Source: an uncultured virus (IMG/VR IMGVR_UViG_3300045995_000154) (lineage: Duplodnaviria; Heunggongvirae; Uroviricota; Caudoviricetes). Taken from it: a DNA stretch of 64,000 nucleotides. A program made the translations under genes and the position numbers. The notes under the pieces were generated by a model. It saw only the letters and a program-made list of their open reading frames with translations, was not told the origin of the DNA and ran no database searches. Positions 572 to 14,358 of the stretch are shown one piece after another. The DNA lies in IMG/VR virus record IMGVR_UViG_3300045995_000154; one strand, 5' to 3'. Positions within the stretch are counted from its first letter, which is position 1. Every line of letters starts with the position of its first letter.

Positions 572-651
572 AAAATTGGTGTGTATGCTCCCCGTCGGTG
601 AATTTCTTCGCTGACCCGGTGCCCTCGCCGTTACATACTCTTAGGCAAATT

Positions 652-1012: not shown

Positions 1013-1018
1013 AAAAAC

Positions 1019-1092: not shown

Positions 1093-1158
1093 ATAAAACT
1101 AAGTAACTGGACGGTCGCTCTCTGACGGTTTCGCTCGTCGGATACAGTTACTAAAACT

Positions 1159-1234
1159 TGGAACGCTCATGGAGAATCGAACTCCATTTGACGCGGGTTT
1201 GCAATCCGCCGCCTATCCAACTGGCTCTGAGCGC
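1159..1234 (-). tRNA. tRNA-Cys(GCA)
   Basis: Cloverleaf, U73, CCA. Confidence 0.9.
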
Positions 1235-1244
1235 ATAAAAACTT

Positions 1245-1272
1245 TGGTCGGAGTACAAAGATTCGAACCTTA
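1245..1272 (-). pseudogene. 3' fragment of a tRNA (T-arm + acceptor strand + CCA, Pro-like G72-A73)
   Basis: AAGGTTCGAATCTTTGTACTCCGACCA with no 5' half. Confidence 0.6.
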
Positions 1273-1283
1273 TACACATAAAT

Positions 1284-1362
1284 TGGTCTCGGCGGCAGGA
1301 TTCGAACCTGCGACATCCTGCTCCCAAAGCAGGCGGAGTGAACCGGGCTATCCTACGCCGAG
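1284..1362 (-). tRNA. tRNA-Pro(UGG)
   Basis: Cloverleaf, C1-G72, CCA. Confidence 0.92.
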
Positions 1363-1956
1363 TATTTCTGCAATACGCTGTTCTATACGCTCTTTTGAGT
1401 CGATGCGGTAAACAGTGTACCCTAAACTATTTAGTGCTGCATCGCGTTCTCGATCTTTATCGGAATCTTTATGCCATTGCGCACCATCTATCTCAATAAT
1501 AACATTACCTATAACAAAATCTGGAAAATACTTTCCTATTCGTTTCTGGTGTTCAAATTCGATACCTAACTTAGTTAAGTACTCATACGCAACCTTTTCA
1601 GGGTACGTCATTTTATTTCTATTTCCCGCAAGTCGCCTATTAGGATGTGTCTCGGGATGATCTATGTGTAATTGCTTCCTCCATTCGGATTTAGCTTTAC
1701 GCATATCATCAGTCCATATTGTGTTGGACGGCTTGCCCATCTTCACTGCTGACAATGCGGCTGCGTTATTTGCCACTCTACTATCAGTAGCTTTATTCAA
1801 ACCTTTGTTCCACGATGGAACACCTTTTGTATGAGAGACATAGTTTCTATCTGGATTGCTTGGGCACAGCCTTTCGTGATTACGTAGTGAGTTCAAATTT
1901 TTGCACTCTTTTCCGCAATACTTGCAATTCAAATTTATTACTTCGGTTATTCTCAT
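1348..1956 (-). CDS. Free-standing endonuclease, Zn finger + NUMOD-like + DUF559/Vsr-like domain
   Basis: CKYCGKEC..HERLC, SWNKGL, YFPDF..IIEIDGAQWH..DRERD..LGYTVYRI. Confidence 0.8.
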   Translation of the reverse strand: MRITEVINLNCKYCGKECKNLNSLRNHERLCPSNPDRNYVSHTKGVPSWNKGLNKATDSRVANNAAALSAVKMGKPSNTIWTDDMRKAKSEWRKQLHIDHPETHPNRRLAGNRNKMTYPEKVAYEYLTKLGIEFEHQKRIGKYFPDFVIGNVIIEIDGAQWHKDSDKDRERDAALNSLGYTVYRIDSKERIEQRIAEILGVG

Positions 1957-1970
1957 ATATTAAAATACAA

Positions 1971-2023
1971 CAGGATTCGCTTTGTTTTACATATGAAAGT
2001 ATAAAATTGCTGAAAGAATCCTA
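1971..2023 (-). ncRNA. CAGCAA-motif RNA (Y RNA-like family)
   Basis: AGGAUUC/GAAUCCU terminal helix followed by UUUCAGCAA. Confidence 0.6.
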
Positions 2024-2027
2024 AAAC

Positions 2028-2101
2028 TGGCGGGCCGACAAGAACTCGAATCTTGACTGACGGTTTTGGAGACCGTAGTGCTGCCATTACACTATCAACC
2101 C
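2028..2101 (-). tRNA. tRNA-Trp(CCA)
   Basis: Cloverleaf, CCA end. Confidence 0.9.
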
Positions 2102-2114
2102 ATATTACTATTTA

Positions 2115-2189
2115 TGGTGCATCGACTTGGAATTGAACCAAGACTCAACCGATTATGAGTCGGACGCTTTACCATTAAGCTATCGACGC
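2115..2189 (-). tRNA. tRNA-Met/Ile2(CAU)
   Basis: Cloverleaf, CCA. Confidence 0.88.
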
Positions 2190-2315
2190 ATAAACCATAT
2201 AGAAGTGCATTAGTTTCCTAGCTTTCGGTAGACATGCCTGTCCTTTCGGGTAGCCCCTGCGTCCAGTTGCTAGGTACCCCAACCGTAAATACACTTCTAT
2301 ATGGCCACTGCAAAG

Positions 2316-2389
2316 TGGTAGGACTGGAGAGAATCGAACTCTCATAGACCGGTTAAAAGCCGGATATTCTGCCATTGAATTACAATCCC
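2316..2389 (-). tRNA. tRNA-Lys(UUU)
   Basis: Cloverleaf, CCA. Confidence 0.9.
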
Positions 2390-2393
2390 ATAT

Positions 2394-2469
2394 TGGTCCA
2401 TCGCCTCGGAATCGAACCGAGTATCCTCCGGGTAAGAGCCGGTTGCTTCGCCACTAAAGCTTGCAATGG
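2394..2469 (-). tRNA. tRNA-Lys(CUU)
   Basis: Cloverleaf, CCA. Confidence 0.88.
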
Positions 2470-2839
2470 ATAGTACGTATTAAAATTATCTTTTACGTGC
2501 TATCCAGGACCATACATGGGATCTAGGATAACACTATATTTTCGCGGAGTCCCGTTTCATATAGTACCTTCTTTCATTAAAATTTAAACTAACACAAAAT
2601 TGGGGGCGTCTGTTAGTGGCGTCTAACATCTCTCTGGTTACTGACCGAGCGTATTTCATTATACTAAGCTACCCATAACTGGTGCAGAACCATACGGTTT
2701 TTATTCGGCCCAAGGTACGACGCTTGAGGCAAACTGCAAATTGGCGTCGGCGTTTGTGAGTAGTGCGGAGTCATTTCGCACGATAGCTACAAGGCTTTAC
2801 CCGAAGGCAGTCGCCGTCTTTTACTCTACCGACATAACT

Positions 2840-2910
2840 TGGTGCACCTAAGGAGAATCAAACTCCTCTACGTTCGGCTTCAAATCCGACTCGCAATATC
2901 AATCTAGCGC
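2840..2910 (-). tRNA. Degenerate tRNA, 8-nt anticodon loop AUUUGAAG
   Basis: T-arm and CCA present, D arm collapsed. Confidence 0.45.
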
Positions 2911-2915
2911 ATAAC

Positions 2916-2989
2916 TGGAGCGGGGTAGGAGAATCGAACTCCTCGCTTTAGCTTGGAAGGCTAAGGTATTACCACTATACGAACCCCGC
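2916..2989 (-). tRNA. tRNA-Gly(UCC)
   Basis: Cloverleaf, U73, CCA. Confidence 0.93.
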
Positions 2990-2996
2990 ATTTAAA

Positions 2997-3174
2997 TTGT
3001 TTTAAGGCTGACGTTTGTGCTTGCGTACAGGATTCGAACCTGCCCATCCGGGTTTAAAGCCCAGTATGCTATCCACTACATCAACGTAATCTCCTTACCA
3101 ACCATACTGCAATACTTATGGACAGGAGTCAAACTTCAGACTGCTTCAAATTGCAGTTATCAGCCTTAAAACAA
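2997..3174 (-). ncRNA. CUGCAA-motif RNA enclosing a tRNA-like domain with UUA anticodon
   Basis: 15-bp terminal helix UUGUUUUAAGGCUGA/UCAGCCUUAAAACAA; internal D, anticodon and T arms; no CCA. Confidence 0.65.
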
Positions 3175-3182
3175 CTAACTAA

Positions 3183-3352
3183 AATCATTACCAATAGCAC
3201 ACGGAATCGAACCGTAAAGTCTGTATTACTGACTGCGACCACGCCAAGCTCATGCATAAACCTTTATGCTATCTTGCTGTTACTGCCTGGGATTCCGAGC
3301 CCCAATGCGCCGAAGCCAGTCCCGTGAATGACTCAGTAACAACGGATAATGA
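3183..3352 (-). ncRNA. Structured RNA with T-arm
   Basis: UCAUUAUC/GGUAAUGA closing helix, ACGG-UUCGAUU-CCGU T-arm, internal ACAGCAA. Confidence 0.45.
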
Positions 3353-3359
3353 AAACTAA

Positions 3360-3717
3360 CAAATATGACCTGCCGCTACGTTTGGACTCTTACCACAGTT
3401 TTTCTCGAGGGTACAAGCCCCGACGCTGTTTATGGCCTTTTCAGGAACATCACTGCAAAGAGCACCGCGGAAGGATGATGCCCTACTGTTTACTTTTCGG
3501 TTAATTACTCCGACTAATTAGATGGGAATACGCGGCGCCTACTAGGAACTCAATGTTCCGTTCGACTTCTGTCCCCGGCAGCATCACCGCCGACACAATT
3601 TTTCATACCCTACTGGACCGACTTTGCTCATCGTTTGTCAATCGCGTCTGCTTGAACTACCAATGCACATTTGATTGAAGACCGCGGCGAACCCACGGCT
3701 CGGCACCCATCTACTAT
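3360..3717 (-). ncRNA. Large structured RNA, GOLLD/ROOL-type candidate
   Basis: ORF-free GC-richer block in a tRNA array with long-range helix UAGAUGGG/CCCAUCUA. Confidence 0.4.
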
Positions 3718-3739
3718 TGAAAAATGGTATCTTAGTATA

Positions 3740-4270
3740 CTATTTCTTTGCCCATCGTCGTTTTGCTGACTCGGACATTCTTTTTATTGTTTCCTCTGAT
3801 CTGGGCTTGCATTTGCGGCCCTTCATCGCTTCGGAAACTTTCCTCTTTTGTTCTTCAGATTTTGGTTTCTTAGCACCTCGACGCACTGCTTCACGCAGGG
3901 CCTCGGGGTAATTCTCCAACATTCTTTTCGACTGTTTTGCTTTATGCTCTTCTGATCTTGGTTTTTTAGGAATACCTAAATCATTTACATATCGCCAACC
4001 ACAGCCGCCGCCTAAAACTATGTTATACACATCAGTTCTTTGCAAGAACTCTGCGTTAACATAATGCCTTTCAGCTTCACGCATTGAGGCTTCGTCTTCG
4101 AAGTATTCCAAAATCGTTTTCGAAAAATTCTCTTTACCAGATTTTGCTATTGCTTGTCTGATTATTTTTCCACTGCCCATATAACCATCATTTAAGTTCT
4201 TGGTTTTATGGACGCCGACATAAATCATTCCGTTAGTAGTGTTCTTGATCTCGTACAAATAAAAATGCAT
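3740..4270 (-). CDS. GIY-YIG (Seg-like) homing endonuclease with NUMOD3 repeats
   Basis: YLYEIKN..NGMIYVGVH..YMGSG..YNI; repeated SEExKxKxSE; own TATAAATA promoter and AGGAGG RBS. Confidence 0.9.
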   Translation of the reverse strand: MHFYLYEIKNTTNGMIYVGVHKTKNLNDGYMGSGKIIRQAIAKSGKENFSKTILEYFEDEASMREAERHYVNAEFLQRTDVYNIVLGGGCGWRYVNDLGIPKKPRSEEHKAKQSKRMLENYPEALREAVRRGAKKPKSEEQKRKVSEAMKGRKCKPRSEETIKRMSESAKRRWAKK

Positions 4271-4304
4271 ATAGCCTCCTACTTTATTTATACAAAATGT
4301 GTCG

Positions 4305-4990
4305 CCATCTACTATCTTACTAACCTGTGTCTTAGTATTAGTCCCAGAGTATATTCACATGCACAGAGGACTGGGCTCCATGTGCTGCTACATGATTTGC
4401 AGGCCTGTTACAAAAGGTTCTCTAATGTCAGGTTCCTTTATCCGCTTATCCTAGTCCCGCTGGTGTCCGAAGGCCGTGCGCTAACCAAGATAAGTTTCAG
4501 CTAATCATATATAAACTCACTCGCATCTGCCTTTTTGAGCCGCGTGTTCTATCCCTTAGCTTCGGCCTAGGACCAATCAGGATGTGCACATGTACACTAG
4601 AGCTTATATATGATCACAATCACTAAAACGCTTGCCGGCGTAAACGACCCCGGGGCGCTGATCGACTGTAAATCATATTCAAACACATTATTTCCCCCGG
4701 GGCGTACCCCAGAGTTAAATCATCCCTGATACAAACTAATGTACTTGAATATGACCCCTTATGCTTCGCAGCATCTTCACGATGTAGCGGACTGTTAAAG
4801 CGTATTGCCACAAACTTGGGCTCAGCACTGTCATCAGCAAAGGGATATCATAACCATTAAATTTTTAAAGAACAAGTATTGTCTGTTAGGTAAGTTAGAT
4901 GGGAGATTTCCCTTACCCTGTTACTCTGTATCAGTCTACCCTAAAGTAGCATCAACCTGCGGCTCCCCGTGCACGAACAGACAAAAACTT
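4305..4990 (-). ncRNA. Series of helix-closed structured RNA modules
   Basis: Closing stems at about 4503/4615, 4672/4752 and 4880/4985; no credible ORF. Confidence 0.4.
4859..4874 (-). promoter_or_regulatory. rrn-type boxA antitermination element (weaker copy 4987-5001)
   Basis: TGTTCTTTAAAAATTT versus boxA consensus TGCTCTTTAACA. Confidence 0.55.
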
Positions 4991-5039
4991 TTTAACGAAC
5001 ATCTAGCAGCTAACTCGATCATTTACTGCTTAAGTACCT

Positions 5040-5250
5040 ATTGTACATTAAAGTTAATTTAGTGTCAAACACTTTGTTTCTATCCCTTAGCAAGCTTAGG
5101 ATTTCTTCACTTAGTGCTTTATCTAACTTAAGTCTTATTGTACATTAAAACCTATTAAGCGTCAACTTAGTTTGGCAATCTTTTTACTTACCGCCAACCA
5201 CCTCATCAACTTAAGTACCTATTGTACATTAAAACGTTTATTACGTCAAA
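5040..5250 (-). promoter_or_regulatory. Three tandem sigma70 promoters
   Basis: TTGACA/TTGACG-N17-TACAAT three times, each with TTTAATG before the -10. Confidence 0.8.
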
Positions 5251-5566
5251 TCCTGAAGCTTTCGCCACATCCACAACGATCTCGCTCGTTTGGGTTGTTG
5301 AAGCGGAATCCCTCATTCAATCCTTCACGTACATAGTCCACTTCCATGCCTTGTAAATAGGCACAGCTCTTAGGGTCAACGAACAGTTTGCAGTCCTTGC
5401 ATTCAATGCAAAGGTCTTCTGCTTGCGCTTCGTCTACGTACTCTAGCACGTATGCTAGTCCACTGCAACCTGTTGTCTTAACGCCAAGACGGATACCGGC
5501 ACCTTTACCACGCTTTGCGATAACTTGCTGTATCTTTCTAGCTGCTTTATCAGTCAGTGACAACAT
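5246..5566 (-). CDS. iscA: Iron-sulfur cluster assembly protein IscA
   Basis: GCSGLAY and CGCGESF motifs. Confidence 0.95.
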   Translation of the reverse strand: MLSLTDKAARKIQQVIAKRGKGAGIRLGVKTTGCSGLAYVLEYVDEAQAEDLCIECKDCKLFVDPKSCAYLQGMEVDYVREGLNEGFRFNNPNERDRCGCGESFRI

Positions 5567-5943
5567 GCTTTGCCTTGTAATCTGCAACCGCTGCCTTGAT
5601 AGCATCTTCTGCAAGAATAGAGCAATGGATCTTTACTGGTGGCAGAGCGAGTTCTTCTGCGATTGTACTGTTTTTCAGGGACGCGGCTTCGTCCAGTGTT
5701 TTTCCTTTGACCCATTCTGTCACTAATGATGACGATGCAATGGCTGATCCGCAACCGTAAGTCTTAAATCGTGCATCAGTGATGATGCCGTCTACCACTT
5801 TGATTTGTAGCTTCATTACATCGTCAACAACCGCAAGCTGGGGCACCAACCATCCCGGTCCCAACTTGCGCATCTCCTTTACCGAACGACCCTACGTTCC
5901 TCGGGTTTTCATAATGGTCAATCACAGCATTTGAATAAGCCAT
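5550..5943 (-). pseudogene. iscU: Fe-S scaffold IscU, frameshifted by a 7-nt insertion
   Basis: MAYSNAVIDHYENPRNVG..GAPACG in one frame; DVMKLQI..GCGSAIASSS..LPPVKIHCS in another. Confidence 0.85.
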
Positions 5944-6526
5944 AATAACCTCCTTTTAAAAATCTTATTACGTGCATAGGTTGATAGCTATCCCACTTAG
6001 CACGATTGTCTGCACCCTTGAGGAACTGAATATTTTTCTTGCTCCCCAATACTTCAGCCGGTAGTCCTAATTCATATCCCTGTTTGTAGGGGACGACATG
6101 GTCTACTTGCCAATCTGTTTTTCTTTTACCGCAAGTGGGGACATATTCTCCTGCTTGCTTCATTGCCTTAATCGTTCTATAAGTTGCCTTGCGTACCATT
6201 CCCTTATACACTGCTAACTCACTGTTAGCTGGTTTTTTAGGACGTCGATTATTAACTGCTCCGTCTCTATTGGGGTTATTGGTGAGCCACTTTTGACTCT
6301 GCTTTTCGTTTGGCAAACCCTTGTTCCATCCGTGCCCTTTTTTAAGGCCGTCATGGTTTTGTTTCTCTTTTTGCTCTGCTGTTAGCTTAACCCCTTTGTT
6401 CCAAGCTTTATTACCTGGACGATTAATAGGGTTTTTGCATGGCGCAGAGCAATAAAGCACATACCTGGGTTTAGTTTCAAACAGGTTGCCGCAAAACTTA
6501 CAAACAGACGATATTCCGTATTTCAT
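5918..6526 (-). CDS. HNH homing endonuclease with NUMOD-like repeats
   Basis: WNKG twice, QVDHVVP..NIQFL..DNRAK; start after TAAATA. Confidence 0.75.
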   Translation of the reverse strand: MKYGISSVCKFCGNLFETKPRYVLYCSAPCKNPINRPGNKAWNKGVKLTAEQKEKQNHDGLKKGHGWNKGLPNEKQSQKWLTNNPNRDGAVNNRRPKKPANSELAVYKGMVRKATYRTIKAMKQAGEYVPTCGKRKTDWQVDHVVPYKQGYELGLPAEVLGSKKNIQFLKGADNRAKWDSYQPMHVIRFLKGGYYGLFKCCD

Positions 6527-6819
6527 ACAGTATTTATGTTGGTGCGCCCGTTTGCGAGTTTTTCCTGGCTCTTGTGCATCAAAGCACCGTACTTCAATGT
6601 GAACATGAATGTGTCGTCTGTTGCTACAGTGAACACAGCCCATGCTTTGTTAACTTTTCCCCAGCGGTAGTCTCGTTCACGTTCGTAATTGAACGTGTAA
6701 AAATCCGCATCTAATTCTGTCTCCATTGCCCACATCAAGATATCGTCTACGAATTCTTGGCGGGCATACTTGTGCTCATCCCTGTGAAGGTGGACGGGCA
6801 TTTCGATTCTAACTTTCAT
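6523..6819 (-). CDS. Hypothetical protein
   Basis: ORF with AGGAG RBS. Confidence 0.6.
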   Translation of the reverse strand: MKVRIEMPVHLHRDEHKYARQEFVDDILMWAMETELDADFYTFNYERERDYRWGKVNKAWAVFTVATDDTFMFTLKYGALMHKSQEKLANGRTNINTV

Positions 6820-6889
6820 TTTCGCTCCTTTGTTTTTCAACAATGGGAAGCGGTGAAGTGTGGTAAATAAAACATTTTTGTTTCCTTAT

Positions 6890-7022
6890 TGGTGGAGCAT
6901 TCGGGAGTTGAACCCGTCTCTTGGAACCTTTTGTCACCCTTGCGGGTCTAGCTTGATGATAAATCTCTGCTTGGCTTCTATCAACGTTCAGGATAGATTT
7001 GAGCCGACCTACACTATGCCCC
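6890..7022 (-). ncRNA. tmRNA-like mini RNA (133 nt)
   Basis: GGGGCAU/AUGCUCC-ACCA with G3-U70; GACGGGUUCAACUCCCG T-arm; no D or anticodon arm. Confidence 0.65.
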
Positions 7023-7026
7023 GTAT

Positions 7027-7080
7027 TGGTGGTCGGCCCACAGAGTCATGACCTCTGAATGCGCCCGGGCAATGCCGACC
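7027..7080 (-). ncRNA. 54-nt T-armless tRNA-like RNA with CAU loop
   Basis: Perfect 7-bp acceptor + ACCA; CAGAG-GUCAUGA-CUCUG hairpin. Confidence 0.55.
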
Positions 7081-7086
7081 GTAAAA

Positions 7087-7173
7087 TGGCGGAGAATAAT
7101 GGAATCGAACCATCACCGCTTTCGCAGTGGGGACGCTTTCCAAGCGCCGTAACCCCCAGGGTACCTACTCTCC
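7087..7173 (-). tRNA. tRNA-Ser(GGA)
   Basis: Long variable arm, G73, CCA. Confidence 0.85.
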
Positions 7174-7277
7174 TAAATTTAATAAGCAGACTGAAATAAT
7201 ATGCTGGGTTCTTGCAACCCTTCTTCTGGCTTAGTGTTCCTCATATCATGCCCGTTTCAGTCAGGCTCTGCTTAACT

Positions 7278-7367
7278 TGGCGGGGCGTAATAGAATCGAA
7301 CTATCACCGGGTACTAGCCAGTGGGCGAGTTTTCAAGGCTCGTTAACTTCCAAAGTTCCTACACCCC
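7278..7367 (-). tRNA. tRNA-Ser(UGA)
   Basis: Long variable arm, G73, CCA. Confidence 0.88.
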
Positions 7368-7381
7368 ATATTCATATTTAT

Positions 7382-7468
7382 TGGCGGATCATAATAGAAT
7401 CGAACTATCACCGCTTTCGCAGTGGGTCGGTATTCGAAGCCGATTAACGCCCAGCGTACCTATGATCC
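7382..7468 (-). tRNA. tRNA-Ser(CGA)
   Basis: Long variable arm, G73, CCA. Confidence 0.88.
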
Positions 7469-8664
7469 ATAATCTTTATCTTTTTAAATCCTGCATTAGT
7501 TGGATTCCCTGCTGGCTTTGCATTTTCTGGACATAAGCTGCAAGCAGGAATTTCATATAGCAAGTCATCAATAAACTTTTTAATTTTGGCAATCTCCCAA
7601 TTTGGATTGCCGGGCTCGTAGCTACTAGCTACCGCCATTTGTTCTTTTGTTGCATCAACTGCAAACTGTGCACTAAATTCGCCAAATACTGCAACTGGGC
7701 CGCATTTCCAAAGTCTACCTCTGGCAAATTGATATGCTTGCCACTCAACTGAAGTAAAGCAGCAATTTGAATGTGCTACTCTTCCGTTGCCAGTTTGGAA
7801 TTTAACAGTTTGCCCCACTTGCGTAAGCATAGTGTCATAAAACTTATATGAATCCATTACTAGCAATGATACGCCATTAGCATCAGTGATTTTATATCCA
7901 TCCGAAATTGGTTTTGGTGGTGCAAAATTAAACAATGTAATACATTCGTCTTGAATGTATTGCGGTAAATTTTTAAACTCATCAGGTCTGTTACATGCTG
8001 GCCAATCGTTGGCTTTGATGGAGTTGTATTTTTCAATCCATGCTGTGTTGCTAACTGCTCCCCAGTTTTCATCGAATGAGAATAACTCCTTGCATTCATC
8101 TTGAATGGCTGATGGCAAACTCTTAAAGTCAGACCTAAAATTACATGTTGGCCAATCTGCTAGTTTAATTTGTTTGTATTTTATGTCCCACCGACTACCT
8201 ATTACTTCTGGTGTCAGGGATGCATGTACATCAGCAGCAAAATTTGCGCTGCTCTTTACATACGGTGCAATTAAAAATTGATCTATTCCAGTCTGCGCAT
8301 TTTGCATTACTTCATTGCTGTGTGCAGACATCCTAACTGACAATCTTGGGTTTTTAAGTCGCTCGTACAATTCTGGCCAACGCGAGAACTGTGTACCATT
8401 TGTTAATATTTCTACCTTTGATGTGGGCCATAGACCCATAACGCCGTCTACCCACAACAAAAAATCTGGATTAAGCATAGGCTCACCACCCAAAATTACT
8501 ATGTGTTTAATGTCGACAATGGCCGCCCACTTGGTATACTCGGCTGAATAATCAGCCCAGCGTTCGTGGCCCTTAAACGTAAAATTGTTAAACCTATTAC
8601 AGTCAGTGCAATTCAAATTACATACGTTTGTGATGTAAAAATCTGCAAACTCGATTTCAATCAT
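7444..8664 (-). CDS. Radical SAM protein with internal tandem repeat
   Basis: CNLNCTDC, LGGEP, TNG, C-terminal CSLCP. Confidence 0.9.
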   Translation of the reverse strand: MIEIEFADFYITNVCNLNCTDCNRFNNFTFKGHERWADYSAEYTKWAAIVDIKHIVILGGEPMLNPDFLLWVDGVMGLWPTSKVEILTNGTQFSRWPELYERLKNPRLSVRMSAHSNEVMQNAQTGIDQFLIAPYVKSSANFAADVHASLTPEVIGSRWDIKYKQIKLADWPTCNFRSDFKSLPSAIQDECKELFSFDENWGAVSNTAWIEKYNSIKANDWPACNRPDEFKNLPQYIQDECITLFNFAPPKPISDGYKITDANGVSLLVMDSYKFYDTMLTQVGQTVKFQTGNGRVAHSNCCFTSVEWQAYQFARGRLWKCGPVAVFGEFSAQFAVDATKEQMAVASSYEPGNPNWEIAKIKKFIDDLLYEIPACSLCPENAKPAGNPTNAGFKKIKIMDHRYAGR

Positions 8665-9309
8665 TTATTGATGTTTATATGTTTCTATATATTTTACCAC
8701 ATTGGTATCAAACCATTGTGGGTTTGCATGTAAGTAATCAATTGTTTTACTTAATGTCCACGGTGTTCTATAAGGGCGATTCGACATTAGTGCTTCCGCA
8801 ACGTCACATGCCGCCAATATACGTATATTATGCGGAATTTGTTCCGCTGTCAATTTAAGTGGATAACCCGACCCATCTAATCGCTCATGATGCATATATG
8901 CAAAATCTACTAATGGCCACGGTGATACTAAATTAGATAAAATAATTTTACCAATCGGCACATGCGTTTCCGCAATCATCCGCTCACCAGGAGTAAGTGG
9001 TCCAGCCTTAGAAATAACACTGTGGTGGACACCTATTTTGCCTATATCATGTATCAACGATCCAATTGTGACACCAATCATGTCATGGTATGATAACCCC
9101 ATCTTGGATGCAACATGCGTTGCAATTTCTTCTGCAGAACACAAGTGATCACCTGTATGCGAGTCGTATGCTTGCATCATTGTGACTAGAGTTTCAAAGT
9201 GAGAACATATTGTTTTCACTGTCATCTCATCAGGAGAATTACCCATGCTAGCCATGTAGTGCTGCAAAAACTCTTTACTTGCAAACATGGCTTTAGTATT
9301 AGGGTGCAT
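8665..9309 (-). CDS. HD-GYP cyclic-dinucleotide phosphodiesterase
   Basis: HDIGK, HHERLDGSGYP, CDVAEAL..RPYR; start set at ATG 9309 because the longer version overlaps tRNA-Val. Confidence 0.9.
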   Translation of the reverse strand: MHPNTKAMFASKEFLQHYMASMGNSPDEMTVKTICSHFETLVTMMQAYDSHTGDHLCSAEEIATHVASKMGLSYHDMIGVTIGSLIHDIGKIGVHHSVISKAGPLTPGERMIAETHVPIGKIILSNLVSPWPLVDFAYMHHERLDGSGYPLKLTAEQIPHNIRILAACDVAEALMSNRPYRTPWTLSKTIDYLHANPQWFDTNVVKYIETYKHQ

Positions 9310-9319
9310 ACTATATTTA

Positions 9320-9393
9320 TGGTATCCCGTAGCAGAATTGAACTGCTGTTTTAACCATGTCAAAGTTACGCTCTACCATTGAGCTAACGGGAC
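9320..9393 (-). tRNA. tRNA-Val(GAC)
   Basis: Cloverleaf, CCA. Confidence 0.88.
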
Positions 9394-9399
9394 AAATTT

Positions 9400-9476
9400 T
9401 GGCATACCGGGAAGGATTCGAACCTTCATCACGCAATTTTGGAGACTGCTGTTCTGCCAATTGGAACTACCGATAT
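9400..9476 (-). tRNA. tRNA-Trp(CCA)
   Basis: Cloverleaf, CCA end. Confidence 0.82.
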
Positions 9477-9482
9477 ATAATT

Positions 9483-9570
9483 TGGCGGGTGAGAGAGGAC
9501 TTGAACCTCCACGCCTTTTTCAAAACGTCAGTTTAGCAAACTGATGCGGCTACCATTTCGCCACTCACCC
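9483..9570 (-). tRNA. tRNA-Ser(GCU)
   Basis: Long variable arm, G73. Confidence 0.9.
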
Positions 9571-9674
9571 ATTAATCTTACTGTGAGGGCTAACCTCTCT
9601 AGCGCAAGTAGCACGTTCCGGTTTACGCCGGTTCGGTTGAGCAGGGTCCAGGTTGCTTGGGACTACTTATACTC

Positions 9675-9749
9675 TGGAGCCTTCAGCTAGAATCAAACTA
9701 GCGATTACTGATTACGAAACAGTCGTGTTATCACTAACACTATAAAGGC
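9675..9749 (-). tRNA. tRNA-Thr(CGU)
   Basis: Cloverleaf, CCA. Confidence 0.82.
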
Positions 9750-9918
9750 ATATTAAATTAGAAGGTTGGATTTACGGTTTCGACACCGCTGCACCAACTT
9801 GTAAGACCGTAAGGGGGTCTTTCGGTAATATTCGGCCCACGTCGTCCGTCCGATATTTACCTATACACTGATATACGACCTGTCTACCAGTTGCTGTTCT
9901 ACCAGCTGCTTCTAAACT

Positions 9919-9995
9919 TGGTGCACCCTCTCGGATTCGAACCGAGAACATTTAGTTTCTAAGACTAACCTGACTACCAATTGCAGCAAGGGTGC
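9919..9995 (-). tRNA. tRNA-Leu(UAG), short variable loop
   Basis: Cloverleaf, A73, 5-nt variable loop. Confidence 0.85.
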
Positions 9996-10095
9996 ATATT
10001 CTGTGCTAGTTTACTCCTTACTAGCAAGTCCTATAAGTCGACTCTGCATTTAAGCCTGCAGAGCTTACTATGCCTATAGCGTAGGCTTAAAATAA

Positions 10096-10395
10096 TCAAC
10101 ACTCCGTAGCCGGGATTCTGTTCTATGCTAACATTAATCTTTGCCACAACCCGCACCTATAAGCAAAAGGTTCCCAAGTGCTGTTTGTGTTGCACACTAT
10201 ATCACGGTAGTGTTAACGATAGCATTTTGTGGTGGAGTTTGCCAGGGGCTTTCACCTGGTTGCGGCCTGGAGCGCGAAGGCCCAGTTTCGTCCTATATGT
10301 TACGTGTTCAAACCCCATTACAAAATACTATCTCCTACTCGCCCTTTGCGTGTGTCCCGAACTTCCTGACTTGCGCCCGTTAGCTCGAATGTTGA
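10096..10395 (-). ncRNA. rnpB: Ribonuclease P RNA
   Basis: P1 UCAACAUUC/GAGUGUUGA, P2 GCUAAC/GUUAGC, CR-I AGGAAGUUCGGGA, CR-V AACAGAAUCCCGGCUAC forming P4. Confidence 0.85.
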
Positions 10396-10399
10396 AATT

Positions 10400-10520
10400 T
10401 GGTGCAGCCCCGTGGATTCGAACCACGACCTCGTCCTTGTATAATGGAATGATTGTAGTGCTGTATTGTATCCTTGTCAGGATCGCTTTCTACGCGAGCT
10501 AACCATTACTCTAAGGCTGC
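10400..10520 (-). ncRNA. tRNA-shaped RNA with anticodon arm replaced by an AUCCU/AGGAU..ACAGCA module
   Basis: Canonical acceptor, D and T arms, CCA; ~60-nt central insert. Confidence 0.7.
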
Positions 10521-10527
10521 ATTAAAT

Positions 10528-10602
10528 TGGCCGGTCCTAGAGGAATCGAACCTCTACCCACTGTTTCGAAGACAATGATGATATCCATTTCACTAAGGAC
10601 CG
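10528..10602 (-). tRNA. tRNA-Arg(UCG)
   Basis: Cloverleaf, CCA. Confidence 0.88.
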
Positions 10603-10607
10603 ATATT

Positions 10608-10683
10608 TGGTGGGTCGCACGGGAGTCGAACCCGCCTGGTACTGATTAAGAGTCAGCTGCATCTGCCGCTTTGCTAACAACCC
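10608..10683 (-). tRNA. tRNA-Lys(CUU)
   Basis: Cloverleaf, CCA. Confidence 0.88.
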
Positions 10684-10691
10684 AAATTGTG

Positions 10692-10768
10692 TGGTGCCCC
10701 TGGTCAGATTCGAACTGACATCCAAAACCTTTTAAGGATTCCCGCACTACCAATTAGCGTACAGGGGC
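10692..10768 (-). tRNA. tRNA-Leu(UAA), short variable loop
   Basis: Cloverleaf, A73. Confidence 0.85.
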
Positions 10769-10877
10769 GAAAATAATTTAGCTAGAACAATCGCCAGGAT
10801 ATGTTGACACATACCCCAGCAGGGATTCGAACCCCATACACGCCTGATGTTCTATATTTTACGTGAGCCAAAAATAA

Positions 10878-10982
10878 CAGGATGTGGCGTCTATAGACCG
10901 GGACTCGAACCCTTGACGCACCCCCAGCGGGCCGGCCTCGCGAAGTATGGAGCGAGTTTTGAGTTTTGCTGCAATCATCCTA
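10878..10982 (-). ncRNA. CAGCAA-motif RNA with T-arm
   Basis: AGGAUG/CAUCCU helix, UUGCAGCAA, GGG-UUCGAGU-CCC. Confidence 0.6.
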
Positions 10983-10985
10983 AAC

Positions 10986-11061
10986 TGGTACATCGGACTG
11001 GCTTCGAACCAGTGACACCTAACTTTTCAGGCTAGTGCTCTACCAACTGAGCTACCGATGC
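10986..11061 (-). tRNA. tRNA-Phe(GAA)
   Basis: Cloverleaf, CCA. Confidence 0.88.
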
Positions 11062-11070
11062 ATAATATAA

Positions 11071-11133
11071 CAGGATCAACTTTTTAGTTTTCGAACAAAG
11101 AAAATTTTATTAAGTTTTGCTGAACTGATCCTA
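11071..11133 (-). ncRNA. CAGCAA-motif RNA
   Basis: AGGAUCA/UGAUCCU helix, GUUCAGCAA. Confidence 0.6.
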
Positions 11134-11137
11134 AAAC

Positions 11138-11215
11138 TGGTACCCTAGGTCGGATTCGAACCGACACGATTCTCCTTTTGAGAGAGACGCCTCATACCAA
11201 TTGGGCTACTAGGGC
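11138..11215 (-). tRNA. tRNA-Leu(CAA), short variable loop
   Basis: Cloverleaf, A73. Confidence 0.85.
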
Positions 11216-11224
11216 ATAATAACT

Positions 11225-11300
11225 TGGTGCAACCTACAGGGATCGAACCTGTTTCATCGGCTTTTCAGACCGCTGCAATGACCACATTTGCTAAAGTTGC
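11225..11300 (-). tRNA. tRNA-Phe(GAA)
   Basis: Cloverleaf, CCA. Confidence 0.82.
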
Positions 11301-11312
11301 ATAATAAACTTA

Positions 11313-11385
11313 GGGGTGACCGATGGGAGTTGAACCCATACTACCAGAGTCACAGTCTAGGTTGCTACCGCTACAACACGGCCAC
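11313..11385 (-). tRNA. tRNA-His(GUG)
   Basis: Cloverleaf, C73; G-1 and terminal A not encoded. Confidence 0.85.
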
Positions 11386-11404
11386 ACCTAAGTTCACTAA
11401 AATT

Positions 11405-11478
11405 TGGCAGCCCGTGTAGGAATCGAACCTACGCTTACTGAGTCAGAGTCAGTTATTCTTCCATTAAACTAACAGGCA
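11405..11478 (-). tRNA. tRNA-Gln(CUG)
   Basis: Cloverleaf, G73, CCA. Confidence 0.85.
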
Positions 11479-11484
11479 ACAAAT

Positions 11485-11571
11485 TGGCTGAGGAAGTACG
11501 ACTTGAACGTACACGCCCTTTACAGACACTGATTTCAAAGACCAGCGTGGCTACCATTTCACCATTCCCCA
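11485..11571 (-). tRNA. tRNA with Gln anticodon (UUG) and long variable arm
   Basis: 87 nt, CUGGU-CUUUGAA-AUCAG, variable arm GUCU-GUAA-AGGGC, G73. Confidence 0.8.
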
Positions 11572-11612
11572 ATAAACTATAAATAATATACATACATCAT
11601 TAAGGTACGTAT

Positions 11613-11912
11613 ATGAAAAACTTTCTAGCTGCACTTTTACTCGTTCCCACTTTATCATTCGCTACGCTTGAGCATTTCAAGAAGGACGTAATCTGCGAAG
11701 ACGAGGACAAATTAATGGCCGAATTAACTGGTCCTGAGTATCAGGAAGAAGTTGTCATTATCGGCAAAGGATCAGTAAACGTGTTAATCATTACGCTCAA
11801 CAAAGAAACAGGATCTTACTCTGTATTAGAAGTTAACGATGGTAAATTGTGCGGGCTAAACGTAGGCGATAATTTTACCATTAATTGGAAGAAAATGCCT
11901 ACACAAAAATAA
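11613..11912 (+). CDS. Small exported protein (signal peptide)
   Basis: MKNFLAALLLVPTLSFA; TATAAATA at 11578 and AAGG RBS. Confidence 0.75.
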   Translation: MKNFLAALLLVPTLSFATLEHFKKDVICEDEDKLMAELTGPEYQEEVVIIGKGSVNVLIITLNKETGSYSVLEVNDGKLCGLNVGDNFTINWKKMPTQK

Positions 11913-11977
11913 CAGGAAGAGGTTGTCGACTAAGACACCAAAAGTTTAAGTCTGTATTGTTTGCAGAACTCTTCCTA
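11913..11977 (-). ncRNA. CUGCAA-motif RNA
   Basis: AGGAAGAG/CUCUUCCU helix, UUCUGCAA. Confidence 0.55.
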
Positions 11978-11981
11978 AAAC

Positions 11982-12236
11982 TGGCTTCGTCAACAAGACT
12001 CGAACTTGTGATGCGGGGTTAAAATCGCGTATGCTGGGTCCCCGTGTGTTTCCCAAAGTTACCCTCGTATCCCCTCAATGCCTTATCTCACTCTTCATGC
12101 ATTTCAACCTGTTCCGCACTTCCCGGACTCACAGTGTTTGGTTTTAAAGCCTACGCGATTGTTATCTACTTTGCACTACTAGCTGCCTTATCTCACCTAC
12201 TCAATACTACTCTACCTTCCTCTACACTATAACGAA
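11982..12236 (-). ncRNA. 255-nt RNA with tRNA-like termini and purine-rich interior
   Basis: UUCGUUA/UGACGAA-GCCA, T-arm ACAAG-UUCGAGU-CUUGU, 13-nt internal repeat. Confidence 0.6.
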
Positions 12237-12244
12237 ATAAAACT

Positions 12245-12319
12245 TGGTGCTCTCTGGCAGATTTGAACTGCCTTCTGTGGACTACAAAACCACTATTCTC
12301 CCGAGTGAACTAAGAGAGC
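12245..12319 (-). tRNA. tRNA-Thr(UGU)
   Basis: Cloverleaf, CCA. Confidence 0.82.
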
Positions 12320-12328
12320 ATAATATAA

Positions 12329-12446
12329 CAGGATGCCTTAATAGACGGCGTGAAGCCGTTGCTCTGCCATTAGAGCGTACTACGCGATGTGCGTGGTGTT
12401 GGAATCGAACCAACTGATCTAAAAGATCGTTGCTGCAAGCATCCTA
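12329..12446 (-). ncRNA. YrlA-like RNA (circularly permuted tRNA domain)
   Basis: AGGAUGC/GCAUCCU helix + UUGCAGCAA; order T-arm, loop-closed acceptor-like stem, D-arm. Confidence 0.7.
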
Positions 12447-12450
12447 AAAC

Positions 12451-12525
12451 TGGTACCTCCTGAGAGAATCGAACTCCCATCCCAACGTTCGTAGCGTTGT
12501 ACATTATCCATTATACGAAGGAGGC
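12451..12525 (-). tRNA. tRNA-Arg(ACG)
   Basis: Cloverleaf, CCA. Confidence 0.88.
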
Positions 12526-12531
12526 AAAAAC

Positions 12532-12605
12532 TGGTGGAGCTCTGGGGAATCGAACCCCAATGACTAACTTGCAAGGCTAGTATAATCCCATTATATGAGA
12601 ACCCC
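12532..12605 (-). tRNA. tRNA-Ala(UGC)
   Basis: G3-U70, CCA. Confidence 0.88.
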
Positions 12606-12613
12606 GATAAATT

Positions 12614-12688
12614 TGGTGGAGGCCGGGGGTATCGAACCCCTCTAGACATGATCATTGCAAGTGAACACCGCAGCCCTCTGCTGCCCCC
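12614..12688 (-). tRNA. Atypical tRNA-Ala(UGC)
   Basis: G3-U70, CCA, non-standard D arm. Confidence 0.65.
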
Positions 12689-12696
12689 ATTATAGG

Positions 12697-12849
12697 TTTT
12701 GAGAGACCAACTATCTTTCTTAAGGACTCGCTGGCTTGTCTCGAATTAAGAGAGTTTATACAACCTTGTACAATTCTACTGGTGTGTCATGCTCAAGAAA
12801 TAGGGCACTAGAATACAAGGGACTCAATCTCAATCGTCTATCTCAAATC
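12697..12849 (-). ncRNA. Rod-like structured RNA, ~150 nt
   Basis: UUUGAGA/UCUCAAA closing helix, internal CCUUGUA/UACAAGG and UUCUA/UAGAA. Confidence 0.45.
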
Positions 12850-12923
12850 TGGTGCTGAATGCGGGAATCGAACCCACGTAAGCTACGTACCAAGCAGCTA
12901 GGTTACCACTACATCAATTCAGC
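12850..12923 (-). tRNA. tRNA-Thr(GGU)
   Basis: Cloverleaf, CCA. Confidence 0.85.
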
Positions 12924-12930
12924 TTGTCTC

Positions 12931-13005
12931 TGGTGGTACTGATGAGAATCGAACTCATTTCTTGCAGCGTATGAAGCTGGTGCATTACCTTAATGCTACA
13001 GGACC
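12931..13005 (-). tRNA. tRNA-Met/Ile2(CAU)
   Basis: Cloverleaf, CCA. Confidence 0.82.
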
Positions 13006-13014
13006 ATAATAACT

Positions 13015-13086
13015 TGGAGCGGGTGACAGGGTTCGAACCTGCATCTTTCGGCTTGGAAGGCCAAACGTATTCCACAAACCACACGC
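13015..13086 (-). tRNA. tRNA-Gly(UCC), weak D arm
   Basis: Anticodon and T arms, U73, CCA. Confidence 0.65.
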
Positions 13087-13139
13087 ATATAAGAGAATTT
13101 TTGACTCATTTCTGACCGCCCTCTTTACATGGCATAAAT

Positions 13140-13218
13140 TGGCTCCGCATCTGGGACTCGAACCCAGCTATACATTGATTAACAGTCAAGTCCGTGCACC
13201 TGGCTCGGATTCTGCGGA
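13140..13218 (-). tRNA. tRNA-Asn(GUU)
   Basis: U1-A72, G73, CCA. Confidence 0.85.
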
Positions 13219-13225
13219 ATAAAAT

Positions 13226-13304
13226 TGGCTCCGTGTGTGAGGATCGAACTCACCTAATCATTGATTAACAGTCAAGTCCTTGCACCATGCTTGGATTTCA
13301 CGGA
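13226..13304 (-). tRNA. tRNA-Asn(GUU)
   Basis: U1-A72, G73, CCA. Confidence 0.85.
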
Positions 13305-13371
13305 ATAAAAGATGCCAGCCACGAGGGGACTGCTGGCGTTAGTCACCGTCTTAATACTGGTGACCAAAATT

Positions 13372-13459
13372 TGGTGGAACGTGTAGGATTCGAACCTACT
13401 ACCCTTGGAAGGGCGCGATGTTACAGACCGCTCTAGCACTCCAACTCTAGCGACGAACC
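13372..13459 (-). tRNA. tRNA-Tyr(GUA)
   Basis: Long variable arm, CCA. Confidence 0.75.
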
Positions 13460-13464
13460 AAATT

Positions 13465-13548
13465 TGGTGGAGACGTGTGGTTTCGATCCACTCCCATAAT
13501 GGGCGAGTTTTACAGACTCGCTGCTGAAGCCATCAGCTTTCCATCTCC
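13465..13548 (-). tRNA. tRNA-Tyr(GUA)
   Basis: Long variable arm, CCA. Confidence 0.78.
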
Positions 13549-13556
13549 AAAAATAG

Positions 13557-13617
13557 CAGGATAGTTTTTACGGTTTTGATTAAAAGTCAAATGTAATTGT
13601 TTGCTGAACCTATCCTA
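13557..13617 (-). ncRNA. CAGCAA-motif RNA carrying a tRNA-Lys(UUU) anticodon stem-loop
   Basis: AGGAUAG/CUAUCCU helix, GUUCAGCAA, UUUGA-CUUUUAA-UCAAA. Confidence 0.65.
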
Positions 13618-13621
13618 TAAC

Positions 13622-13696
13622 TGGCGCCGTAGACGAGACTCGAACTCGCCTGACTCACATCGACAGTGTGGTGCCCTCCCCGAGAGCTACTACGGC
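13622..13696 (-). tRNA. tRNA-Asp(GUC)
   Basis: Cloverleaf, G73. Confidence 0.82.
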
Positions 13697-13786
13697 ATAT
13701 AACTTGGCGGCACGAAACCAGCTGTGCACTTACGCTTCTTAGCTTCTCGTTCCTAGGAAACTTACGCTTGGGTCATCGCCCTAACT

Positions 13787-13860
13787 TGGTGTGAGATAAG
13801 GGAATCGAACCCTTGACTAAAAGTTGGCAACCTTTAATTTTACCATTAAACTAATCCCAC
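13787..13860 (-). tRNA. tRNA-Gly(GCC)
   Basis: Cloverleaf, CCA, atypical A73. Confidence 0.8.
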
Positions 13861-13868
13861 ATAAAAAC

Positions 13869-13942
13869 TGGTCAGGGTACAAGGAATCGAACCTTGGCCA
13901 CGACGCCCCAAACGTCGCATGATACCATTTCACCACACCCTG
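13869..13942 (-). tRNA. tRNA-Pro(UGG)
   Basis: Cloverleaf, C1-G72. Confidence 0.88.
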
Positions 13943-13951
13943 AAAATACAT

Positions 13952-14028
13952 TGGTCTGCGCTGAAGGATTCGAACCTTCGACCCCTCGGTTCCAGGCCGA
14001 GAACTCTACCAGACTGAGCTAAACACAG
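13952..14028 (-). tRNA. tRNA-Pro(UGG), loop CC-UGG-AA
   Basis: Cloverleaf, C1-G72, C33 and A37. Confidence 0.82.
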
Positions 14029-14038
14029 ATTAAAAACT

Positions 14039-14112
14039 TGGTACATCGTTGGAGAATTGAACTCCCATCAACGGTATGTAACACCGCTATTCTACCATTA
14101 AACTACCGATGC
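14039..14112 (-). tRNA. tRNA-Val(UAC)
   Basis: Cloverleaf, CCA. Confidence 0.82.
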
Positions 14113-14120
14113 AAACTAAC

Positions 14121-14195
14121 TGGAGTCGCGTACGGGGATCGAACCCGCCTGAACAGGTTGAAAGCCTGTGGACCTCACCAAAAGTCAAACGCGAC
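14121..14195 (-). tRNA. tRNA-Glu(UUC)
   Basis: Cloverleaf, CCA. Confidence 0.85.
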
Positions 14196-14202
14196 ATAAA
14201 CT

Positions 14203-14276
14203 TGGTACCCTGTCCAGGTAACGATCCTGGGTCTATCGGTTATCAGCCGATTGCTCTACCTTTGAGCTAACTGGGC
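14203..14276 (-). tRNA. tRNA-Ile(GAU)
   Basis: Cloverleaf, CCA. Confidence 0.88.
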
Positions 14277-14284
14277 ACTAAACT

Positions 14285-14358
14285 TGGTACGGGATGTAGG
14301 GATCGAACCTACGCTCTCAGAGTCAAAGTCTGATATGCTACCATTACATAAATCCCGA
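14285..14358 (-). tRNA. tRNA-Gln(UUG)
   Basis: Cloverleaf, CCA. Confidence 0.82.

Follow-up and report, generated by a model that had tools for sequence, protein, structure and literature searches.

Seven short units in the transfer RNA (tRNA) array of an uncultured phage share a constant handle, a closing helix (P1) with a C(A/U)GCAA motif just above it, around inserts that differ from one unit to the next. They lie on a 64,000-nucleotide (nt) stretch of IMG/VR record IMGVR_UViG_3300045995_000154, which in its full length is referred to here as the window. The units probably encode small structured RNAs that function in the manner of Y RNAs, with a Ro60-like protein as partner and with tRNA-directed effector inserts. 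The family to which they belong looks like a widespread and undescribed viral version of the Ro60/Y-RNA particle, with a new handle, a new protein clade, multicopy arrays, and insert types of its own, and the linkage of the units to the gene for the Ro60-like protein is strong, old, and kept over deep divergence. A preliminary description of the window had proposed a constant handle with variable cargo on the Y RNA/Ro60 design, and this proposal is supported by the units, by a Ro60-fold gene in the same phage, and by the linkage of the two across hundreds of loci.

Seven units with a common handle

All seven units named in the preliminary description are real; they lie on the minus strand, which is the tRNA strand, inside the phage tRNA array, and the positions first given for them are their low ends to within 1 to 8 nt. 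Each unit has a P1 of 6 to 8 base pairs (bp) joining both ends, followed by ~3 nt, C(A/U)GCAA, a variable insert, and an A-rich linker, and the register AGG-N7-C(A/U)GCAA is constant in all seven. The units and the array that hosts them are as follows.

1972..2022, minus strand: unit of 51 nt; P1 AGGAUUC/GAAUCCU; CAGCAA at 2007-2012; hairpin as insert
3005..3166, minus strand: variant unit of 162 nt; P1 (A)AGGCUGA/UCAGCCU(U); CUGCAA at 3151-3156
10879..10981, minus strand: unit of 103 nt; P1 AGGAUG/CAUCCU (6 bp); CAGCAA at 10966-10971
11072..11132, minus strand: unit of 61 nt; P1 AGGAUCA/UGAUCCU; CAGCAA at 11117-11122
11914..11976, minus strand: unit of 63 nt; P1 AGGAAGAG/CUCUUCCU (8 bp); CUGCAA at 11961-11966
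12330..12445, minus strand: unit of 116 nt; P1 AGGAUGC/GCAUCCU; CAGCAA at 12430-12435
13558..13616, minus strand: unit of 59 nt; P1 AGGAUAG/CUAUCCU; spacer GUU; CAGCAA at 13601-13606
12..14358, minus strand: tRNA array hosting the units, with 44 tRNA genes (ARAGORN)

The pattern AGG-N7-C(A/T)GCAA matches eight times in the window against 1.29 expected, and eight matches were reached in none of 100 shuffles. Seven of the eight are the units listed above, each with a perfect 6- to 8-bp closing helix 51 to 162 nt downstream; no closing helix was found for the eighth (+3443). The P1 sequences vary among units yet remain complementary, as had been claimed from the window copies, and compensatory changes occur at seven pairs among 53 short units from many phages. 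In predicted folds the paired ends leave the conserved CAGCAA single-stranded on the 5' strand, 3 nt above the helix. Because the unit detector demands a perfect 7-bp complement, so that the percentage paired holds by construction, the reality of the family rests on strand asymmetry, on the controls, on conserved positions that were not imposed, and on covariance-model matches. The flanks, imposed by no search pattern, are conserved as a tRNA 3' CCA-N-UUUU upstream, G-U-U downstream, and an A-run before the 3' strand. Likewise, among 137 units found beside divergent homologues of the protein gene (see below), a G follows the helix in 123, and CAGCAA outnumbers CUGCAA by 127 to 10, neither feature being imposed by the detector. 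The handle takes a more general form in Aeromonas phage 4_4572 and Vibrio phage PhiImVa-1, reading A-G-helix, 3 nt, CAGCAA and then, past the insert, helix-C-U and G, with a helix that is not AGGAU. Readings of the handle as a k-turn, a T-loop, or an RNase III site were dropped by eye, the sequences not fitting these motifs.

A covariance model (R1), the check proposed at the outset, was built from the 53 short units and recovers six of the seven window units with no other match in the window. Two of the six are outside the training set (10879-10981, 27.5 bits, E 3.6e-4; 12330-12445, 32.3 bits, E 2.4e-5), and four belong to it (1972-2022, 56.7 bits; 11072-11132, 55.4 bits; 11914-11976, 48.7 bits; 13558-13616, 62.1 bits); the 162-nt unit at 3005-3166 is missed at E<=1. 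An exact-pattern scan of viral contigs gave at least 137 stretches with the motif, and a closing helix is present for 138 of the 196 distinct motif matches in the loci listed, many contigs having two to four copies beside tRNA 3' ends. Two complete phage genomes have copies clustered on one strand of the tRNA region, with six in one (G002) and five in the other (G003). Motif matches in the named terminase relatives PA5oct, Phosso, Vibrio 2.275.O, and Atu_ph07 are scattered at control level and form no clusters. No family in Rfam 15 covers the units: tRNA is the sole family reported at gathering scores in the 64-kilobase (kb) window and in 10 loci with a DUF2828 or TROVE gene, and the best 150 of 219 matches in a scan of 20 loci are all tRNA.

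The inserts fall into three classes: a single hairpin in units of ~50 to 65 nt, tRNA arms in permuted order in units of ~100 to 130 nt, and larger folds that recur across contigs in units of 150 to 260 nt. Insert and P1 sequence are both specific to the unit type, and each type is kept from phage to phage. A 7-nt loop closes the best insert hairpin in 74 of 173 distinct short units, against 12 with shuffled inserts, and the 74 loops have C32 in 56, U33 in 61, A37 in 62, and A38 in 63, for a consensus of CU-NNN-AA with middle triplets that are mostly UGU, UUU, CAU, and GUU. This is the anticodon-loop pattern of tRNAs reading ANN codons, which we take to be linked to N6-threonylcarbamoyladenosine at position 37 (t6A37). 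Many inserts are not anticodon-like. Two larger unit types, of ~160 nt and ~210 to 260 nt, recur in tandem with the same handle in many contigs, viral loci L011, L056, L067, and L218 being examples, and their folds matched no Rfam family in the stretch tested.

These classes can be seen within the window. The insert of unit 13558-13616 is a hairpin, UUUGA-CUUUUAA-UCAAA, which resembles the anticodon stem-loop of tRNA-Lys(UUU). Unit 1972-2022 is located between a tRNA-Trp gene and a DUF559/Vsr-like open reading frame (ORF), unit 11072-11132 has a second helix, AACUU/AAGUU, that abuts P1 and a small hairpin as insert, and the hairpin type of unit 11914-11976 is kept in other phage contigs. Unit 10879-10981 has a hairpin and a T-arm-like GGGUUCGAGUCCC element. 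The insert of unit 12330-12445 consists of a small hairpin, a T arm, a loop-closed acceptor stem, a D arm, and a second hairpin, a layout that by eye is a permuted tRNA-like domain and matches the YrlA-type layout scored in contig L021. There, one permuted insert aligns to positions 24-84 of the YrlA model (RF02553) with 34 bits and E 1.8e-5; this is the best YrlA score, against a gathering score of 69 bits, and the insert leaves the model's Rsr-binding ends unaligned. A free acceptor end with a 3' CCA is not present in the permuted inserts, whose acceptor stems are closed by loops. The exception is the tRNA-like gene enclosed in variant unit 3005-3166, at 3017-3091, in which acceptor pairing is poor by eye; this unit also has AAAAC as its 3' flank in place of GUU. 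The preliminary description of the inserts as an anticodon hairpin, a T-arm, or a whole or permuted tRNA domain holds.

We note that the gene at 3017-3091 (minus strand) is reported by ARAGORN, scores 45.7 bits as tRNA in Rfam, and would be an ochre suppressor. A comparable "tRNA-Sup-TTA" of 115 nt is annotated among the units of Vibrio phage PhiImVa-1.

A Ro60-like protein and its linkage to the units

The source phage is a large T4-related myovirus of freshwater metagenomes, with a terminase closest to those of PA5oct-type jumbo phages (51% identity); the DNA runs containing the window sequence are labeled riverine, wetland, and pond. A 31-mer from the left end of the window led to IMG/VR contig L236, in which positions 9712-20031 are 100% identical to window positions 1-10320. 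A gene with DUF2828 and DUF7788 domains lies in the tRNA-strand orientation on this contig, its start ~9.77 kb to the left of the window's first base, and the tRNA array extends past the left edge of the window towards it; the window itself holds no copy (tblastn best E 0.045). Three further units, of 129, 249, and 37 nt, precede the gene, the last ending 14 nt before its ATG, and the phage carries at least 10 handle-bearing units in total. The Ro-type partner anticipated in the preliminary description has a counterpart in this phage, whose Ro60-fold gene lies 9.8 kb beyond the left edge of the window.

The protein matches PHROG 850, "RNA-binding protein" (E 2e-140). An AlphaFold2 model from a 78-sequence alignment has a predicted local distance difference test (pLDDT) score of 92.1 and a predicted template modeling (pTM) score of 0.91; a single-sequence model was unusable (pLDDT 44). 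In a Foldseek search with the model, Ro60/Rsr/TROVE chains fill all 12 rows to rank 13 (E 1.5e-8 to 5.7e-6, ~500 to 540 alignment columns), including Xenopus and human Ro60, Deinococcus radiodurans Rsr, and Thermus phage phiRo60, and the rows after this set are vWA-only matches at E>=9e-4. The VIA-align top 10 entries are all Ro60/Rsr, with a Z of 21.5 against 1yvp_A (root mean square deviation 4.0 Å over 411 residues), and the next rows are vWA domains at Z<=10.2. As modeled, the protein has a full-length Ro60 fold, with a HEAT-repeat ring and a vWA domain with a MIDAS (metal-ion-dependent adhesion site) motif. The DxSxS residues of this motif, D275, S277, and S279, are invariant in the 78 sequences, and VDVSGSM aligns to VDVSGSMD of TROVE proteins. 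Language-model features of the protein point to TROVE+vWA_Ro60 clusters, and we treat this as a lead only. Searches of the PDB by phmmer and by sequence profile returned nothing significant, four of the seven weak matches being Ro60 at the MIDAS region.

Linkage was examined from both sides. Starting from the RNA, a DUF2828 gene is present in four of five unit-bearing records, the two complete genomes among them, and absent from all 14 control genomes; the nearest record compared (G001), which shows no DUF2828 match, is uninformative, being 38% complete and not covering the tRNA region. Starting from the protein, same-strand units occur at 77 of 80 loci on viral contigs, the gene strand having 215 units, the opposite strand 16, and a reversed-sequence control 10, and a unit ends within 300 nt upstream of the gene at 37 of 41 fully flanked loci. 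Among divergent homologues (33 to 68% identity) on bacterial contigs and metagenome-assembled genomes from many phyla, same-strand units occur at 61 of 80 loci, with 137, 17, and 17 units in the same three categories and a unit within 300 nt upstream at 30 of 46 fully flanked loci. The nearest unit ends 11 to 25 nt before the ATG in 22 of the 53 loci in which a start was found, with a Shine-Dalgarno sequence in between. Homologues of the protein are found in 705 cultured-phage records and form 6,153 clusters at 50% identity.

The same arrangement is seen in cultured phages whose families are unrelated, and a BLAST search with one window unit matched unannotated DNA in Vibrio and Aeromonas phages. 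Aeromonas phage 4_4572 and Vibrio phage PhiImVa-1, which belong to different families, have tandem units directly upstream of a gene for a DUF2828+DUF7788 protein of 463 to 479 amino acids (aa), 45% identical between the two and annotated as "RNA-binding protein" in 4_4572. Listeria phage LP-039 has three units behind a promoter-like site (TTGACA/TATCAT) and directly upstream of a DUF2828 gene, and in Mycobacterium phage Gardann a unit immediately follows a DUF2828+DUF7788 gene annotated as "Ro-like RNA binding protein." In Escherichia phage LinBro the units come after the gene, within the tRNA array, and Escherichia phage bumzen (Felixounavirus; listed host K-12 MG1655) encodes a homologue. 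Phage CcrColossus, with a canonical-TROVE locus, lacks such a unit there. In LinBro (L322), tiny opposite-strand coding sequences annotated as "hypothetical protein" overlie units, identified by covariance model and by sequence, at 5370-5471 and in other gaps of the tRNA array, and these are likely mis-annotations.

Linkage to TROVE/Ro60 genes or to rtcB had also been put forward. Neither is borne out: the partner is not a canonical TROVE-family protein, and canonical TROVE is absent from all five unit-bearing records searched, two of them complete genomes, and from all three records of a second search. The rtcB gene is absent from the same five records; an RtcB-type ligase does lie 1.3 kb from the gene in Listeria phage LP-039. 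The LP-039 gene (L320, 8852-10063), annotated as RNA-2',3'-PO4:RNA-5'-OH ligase, is downstream of the Ro60-like gene, a placement that recalls the bacterial rsr-yrlA-rtcB arrangement; the freshwater phages are without RtcB.

Neighboring genes in the tRNA array

Several other features are encoded on the minus strand within the array. Two ORFs are of homing-endonuclease type: one at 1348-1956, DUF559/Vsr-like with an N-terminal zinc finger, starts ~15 nt after unit 1972-2022, and the other, at 3740-4270, is GIY-YIG. In a block between tRNA genes at 5246-9363, genes of Fe-S assembly type (Fe-S_biosyn/IscA-like and NifU_N/IscU-like) are joined by those for an HD_5 protein and a 406-aa radical-SAM protein, and the block may be a module for tRNA modification. 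Two tandem tRNA-like genes at 13150-13320, read by eye, have a CUGUUAA anticodon loop (Asn, GUU) and CCA ends; they are reported neither by ARAGORN nor by Rfam at gathering scores, and high-depth RNA-library contigs fall within the pair (13226-13308). On the plus strand, a 99-aa ORF without a family match (11613-11912) is opposite to the tRNA array and convergent on unit 11914-11976.

Three metatranscriptome runs contain 5 to 6% of the sampled words of the window sequence. RNA-library contigs cover 10874-11085 and 13549-13658, although such contigs cannot show transcription, ends, or strand.

Interpretation and relation to known systems

If the units function as Y-like RNAs, they would share a transcript with the tRNAs and be freed from it at the A/U-rich spacers. 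P1 and the CAGCAA bulge would then form the docking site for the Ro60-like protein, much as Ro60/Rsr recognizes bulged Y-RNA stems by conserved bases in their 5' strand. The variable insert may serve as an effector module, in the form of C32-U33-NNN-A37-A38 anticodon-stem-loop mimics (mostly ANN-decoding), YrlA-type domains, or larger folds, and could either bring tRNA-binding factors to the ring or divert them from real tRNAs; nucleases, repair enzymes, and modification enzymes are candidate factors. The purpose is likely to be the protection or policing of the tRNA pool during infection. Since the phage has at least 10 such RNAs, these would act as a set of adaptors that program a single protein. 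A more ambitious form of this proposal is possible, if doubtful: a programmable Ro60-like particle, present in many phage families, in which a ring protein with at least 10 adaptor RNAs captures tRNA-cleaving defense nucleases of the host or steers the repair and quality control of particular tRNAs, and whose interchangeable modules would be Lys, Thr, Asn, and Met-type anticodon loops, tRNA elbows, and larger folds.

Several points weigh against a Y-RNA-like role with a Ro60-like partner. Binding, processing, and expression in this phage are predictions from sequence, and the helix pairing among detected units follows from the design of the detector. The units within the window are 9.8 to 23.4 kb from the gene and are tied to it solely through the handle they have in common with the gene-proximal units. 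Many of the 80 viral loci are close relatives (66 to 100% identity) and are not independent, for which reason the linkage test was repeated on the loci at 33 to 68% identity. Ending 11 to 25 nt ahead of the ATG, as some units do, is also compatible with action in cis alone. Sequence-level support for the fold is modest: hhalign against a TROVE alignment gives E 7.1e-6 and a probability of 84%, spanning the vWA domain and only the last part of the TROVE region, Pfam TROVE (PF05731) has no match to the protein at E<=10, where DUF7788 and DUF2828 are matched instead, and a profile search of the PDB gave E>=0.14. The units also carry C(A/U)GCAA where the published Ro/Rsr motif is GNCGAAN0-1G, or GGUCCGA in animals (PMC4201824), and the preliminary description was correct in not recognizing CAGCAA as a canonical Ro site. 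Finally, among the highly transcribed regions of Listeria phage CKA15, discussed below, the one range quoted, 26,236-26,727, would be ~1.5 kb upstream of the three LP-039 units if the coordinates of the two genomes correspond.

Among the alternatives, it is unlikely that the units are cis elements of the tRNA/Ro-like operon, such as processing or stability cassettes or operators for translational self-repression, that have no adaptor role in trans. The nearest unit does sit directly before the Shine-Dalgarno sequence and ATG in 22 of 53 loci, and unit flanks resemble ordinary inter-tRNA spacers, with CCA-N-UUUU and GUU presumably fitting RNase E-type sites. However, genomes hold many units, at distances of up to 23 kb from the gene; every type recurs in different phages with an insert and P1 specific to it, and inserts mimicking tRNA parts would be superfluous in an operator. 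For the gene-proximal unit, cis autoregulation of the gene is a serious alternative, and it can coexist with a trans role. We consider it decidedly unlikely that the units act on their own as sponges or decoys for tRNA-targeting enzymes of the host, anticodon nucleases or modification enzymes for example, with a handle that is merely stabilizing and a Ro60-like gene that is a mere neighbor. Some defense nucleases target tRNAs of the UGU, UUU, CAU, or GUU anticodon type, the triplets that predominate in the 7-nt CU-NNN-AA loops, but such decoys would not account for the constancy of CAGCAA, of its 3-nt spacing, and of the G following P1 in phages of actinobacteria and of proteobacteria alike, or for a protein linkage that persists at 33% protein identity, and many inserts are not anticodon-like.

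Two further accounts fare less well. Several inserts hold all tRNA arms in permuted order with their ends joined by P1, as would be expected of circularly permuted or split tRNA genes, or of self-cleaving ribozymes, that mature into working tRNAs or circular RNAs. The loop-closed acceptor stems without a CCA end, the majority of units that hold a hairpin only, the complete unit-bearing genomes without RtcB, and the absence of any match to a known self-cleaving ribozyme family at E<=1 in a stretch holding four units make this very improbable. It is scarcely credible that the units are DNA-level elements, whether hairpin-forming recombination or homing sites or miniature mobile elements in tRNA spacers, despite their inverted-repeat ends with conserved flanks and the homing-endonuclease-type ORFs in the same array. 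The bias to the tRNA/gene strand is strong in both locus sets (215 versus 16 and 137 versus 17), the helices keep pairing through compensatory changes and not through sequence, the inserts are RNA-like tRNA mimics, and the homologous region is highly transcribed in CKA15.

In the preferred reading, that of Y-like RNAs with a Ro60-like partner, the family defines a second handle (P1-N3-CAGCAA) and a second, very large clade of Ro60-fold proteins. One protein probably serves a whole library of RNAs with inserts that mimic specific tRNA parts, and this mimicry points to tRNA-directed partners. The family addresses the questions of what Ro60/Y-RNA particles do in bacteria and phages and of what the tRNA-like end of YrlA binds. 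Because the system is present in tractable phage-host pairs, including Escherichia Felixounavirus, Mycobacterium smegmatis, Vibrio, and Aeromonas phages, binding and phenotype are directly testable. The units also account for unannotated gaps in phage tRNA arrays, some of them now mis-annotated as odd tRNAs or tiny ORFs. The programmable particle, if true, would be an RNA-guided counter-defense for translation and would give the tRNA-like end of bacterial-type Y RNAs its first assigned job.

Small stable RNAs of unknown function encoded in a tRNA cluster are familiar from phage T4, as rnaC and rnaD. The units would resemble them as small RNAs within a phage tRNA cluster; the difference is that no P1/CAGCAA handle is visible by eye in the T4 sequences.

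YrlA RNAs, which occur with Rsr/Ro60 in bacteria and mycobacteriophages, have the GNCGAAN0-1G motif, a tRNA-like module of T arm, closed acceptor, and D arm, and proximity to Ro60 (PMC4201824; bioRxiv 10.1101/312249). The units are like YrlA/Rsr in their paired-end stem, conserved 5'-strand motif, and modular effector end, which in a subset of units can be a T-arm/closed-acceptor/D-arm tRNA mimic. Many units are likewise encoded beside a Ro60-fold protein gene on the same strand, although the seven in the window, at 9.8 to 23.4 kb, are outside the ~4 kb that is characteristic of YrlA and a Ro60 orthologue. They differ in the CAGCAA bulge 3 nt above a 7-bp helix, in an insert below the gathering threshold (34 versus 69 bits), in a partner from the DUF2828+DUF7788 clade rather than Pfam TROVE, in the many copies per genome embedded in tRNA arrays, and in inserts that are mostly anticodon-stem-loop-like hairpins or other folds.

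The Ro60 protein of Thermus phage phiLo binds two Y-like RNAs, Yrl1 and Yrl2, that are encoded upstream of its gene and have a bulge with CGAA (PMC12135203). This system shares with ours a phage Ro60-fold protein, upstream Y-like RNAs, and a 5'-3' stem flanking a motif bulge, and two of the closest structural matches to our model are the phiRo60 entries 9kop and 9l5y (Z 17.2 and 16.1). In contrast, phiRo60 is of the TROVE family, its RNAs carry CGAA, and there are two of them, not at least 10; the accessible text of PMC12135203 does not describe a tRNA-array context or anticodon-loop mimics. Some of the jumbo phages in one survey encode ROT/TROVE proteins together with a tRNA-like partner (PMC7824862). 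No definition of the CAGCAA handle, the family, or the inserts is given in the literature found, setting aside supplementary files, including those of PMC4201824 with its possible phage YrlA loci; a literature search on DUF2828 returned nothing on function, and one on TROVE, phages, and tRNA-like RNAs returned no description of the motif.

The closest parallel in expression comes from Listeria phage CKA15, in which the three most-transcribed regions are unannotated, near tRNA genes, and no more than 2 kb upstream of CKA15_055 on the same strand; the best HHpred match of CKA15_055 is Rsr, and the protein was detected in purified virions (PMC12282133). The authors name Y RNAs as one of several possibilities and, in the accessible text, leave motif, structure, and family undefined. 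CKA15_055 is downstream of tRNA genes, and in the related phage LP-039 the homologous DUF2828 gene is directly preceded by three units. The abundant CKA15 RNAs probably belong to the same system as the units described here.

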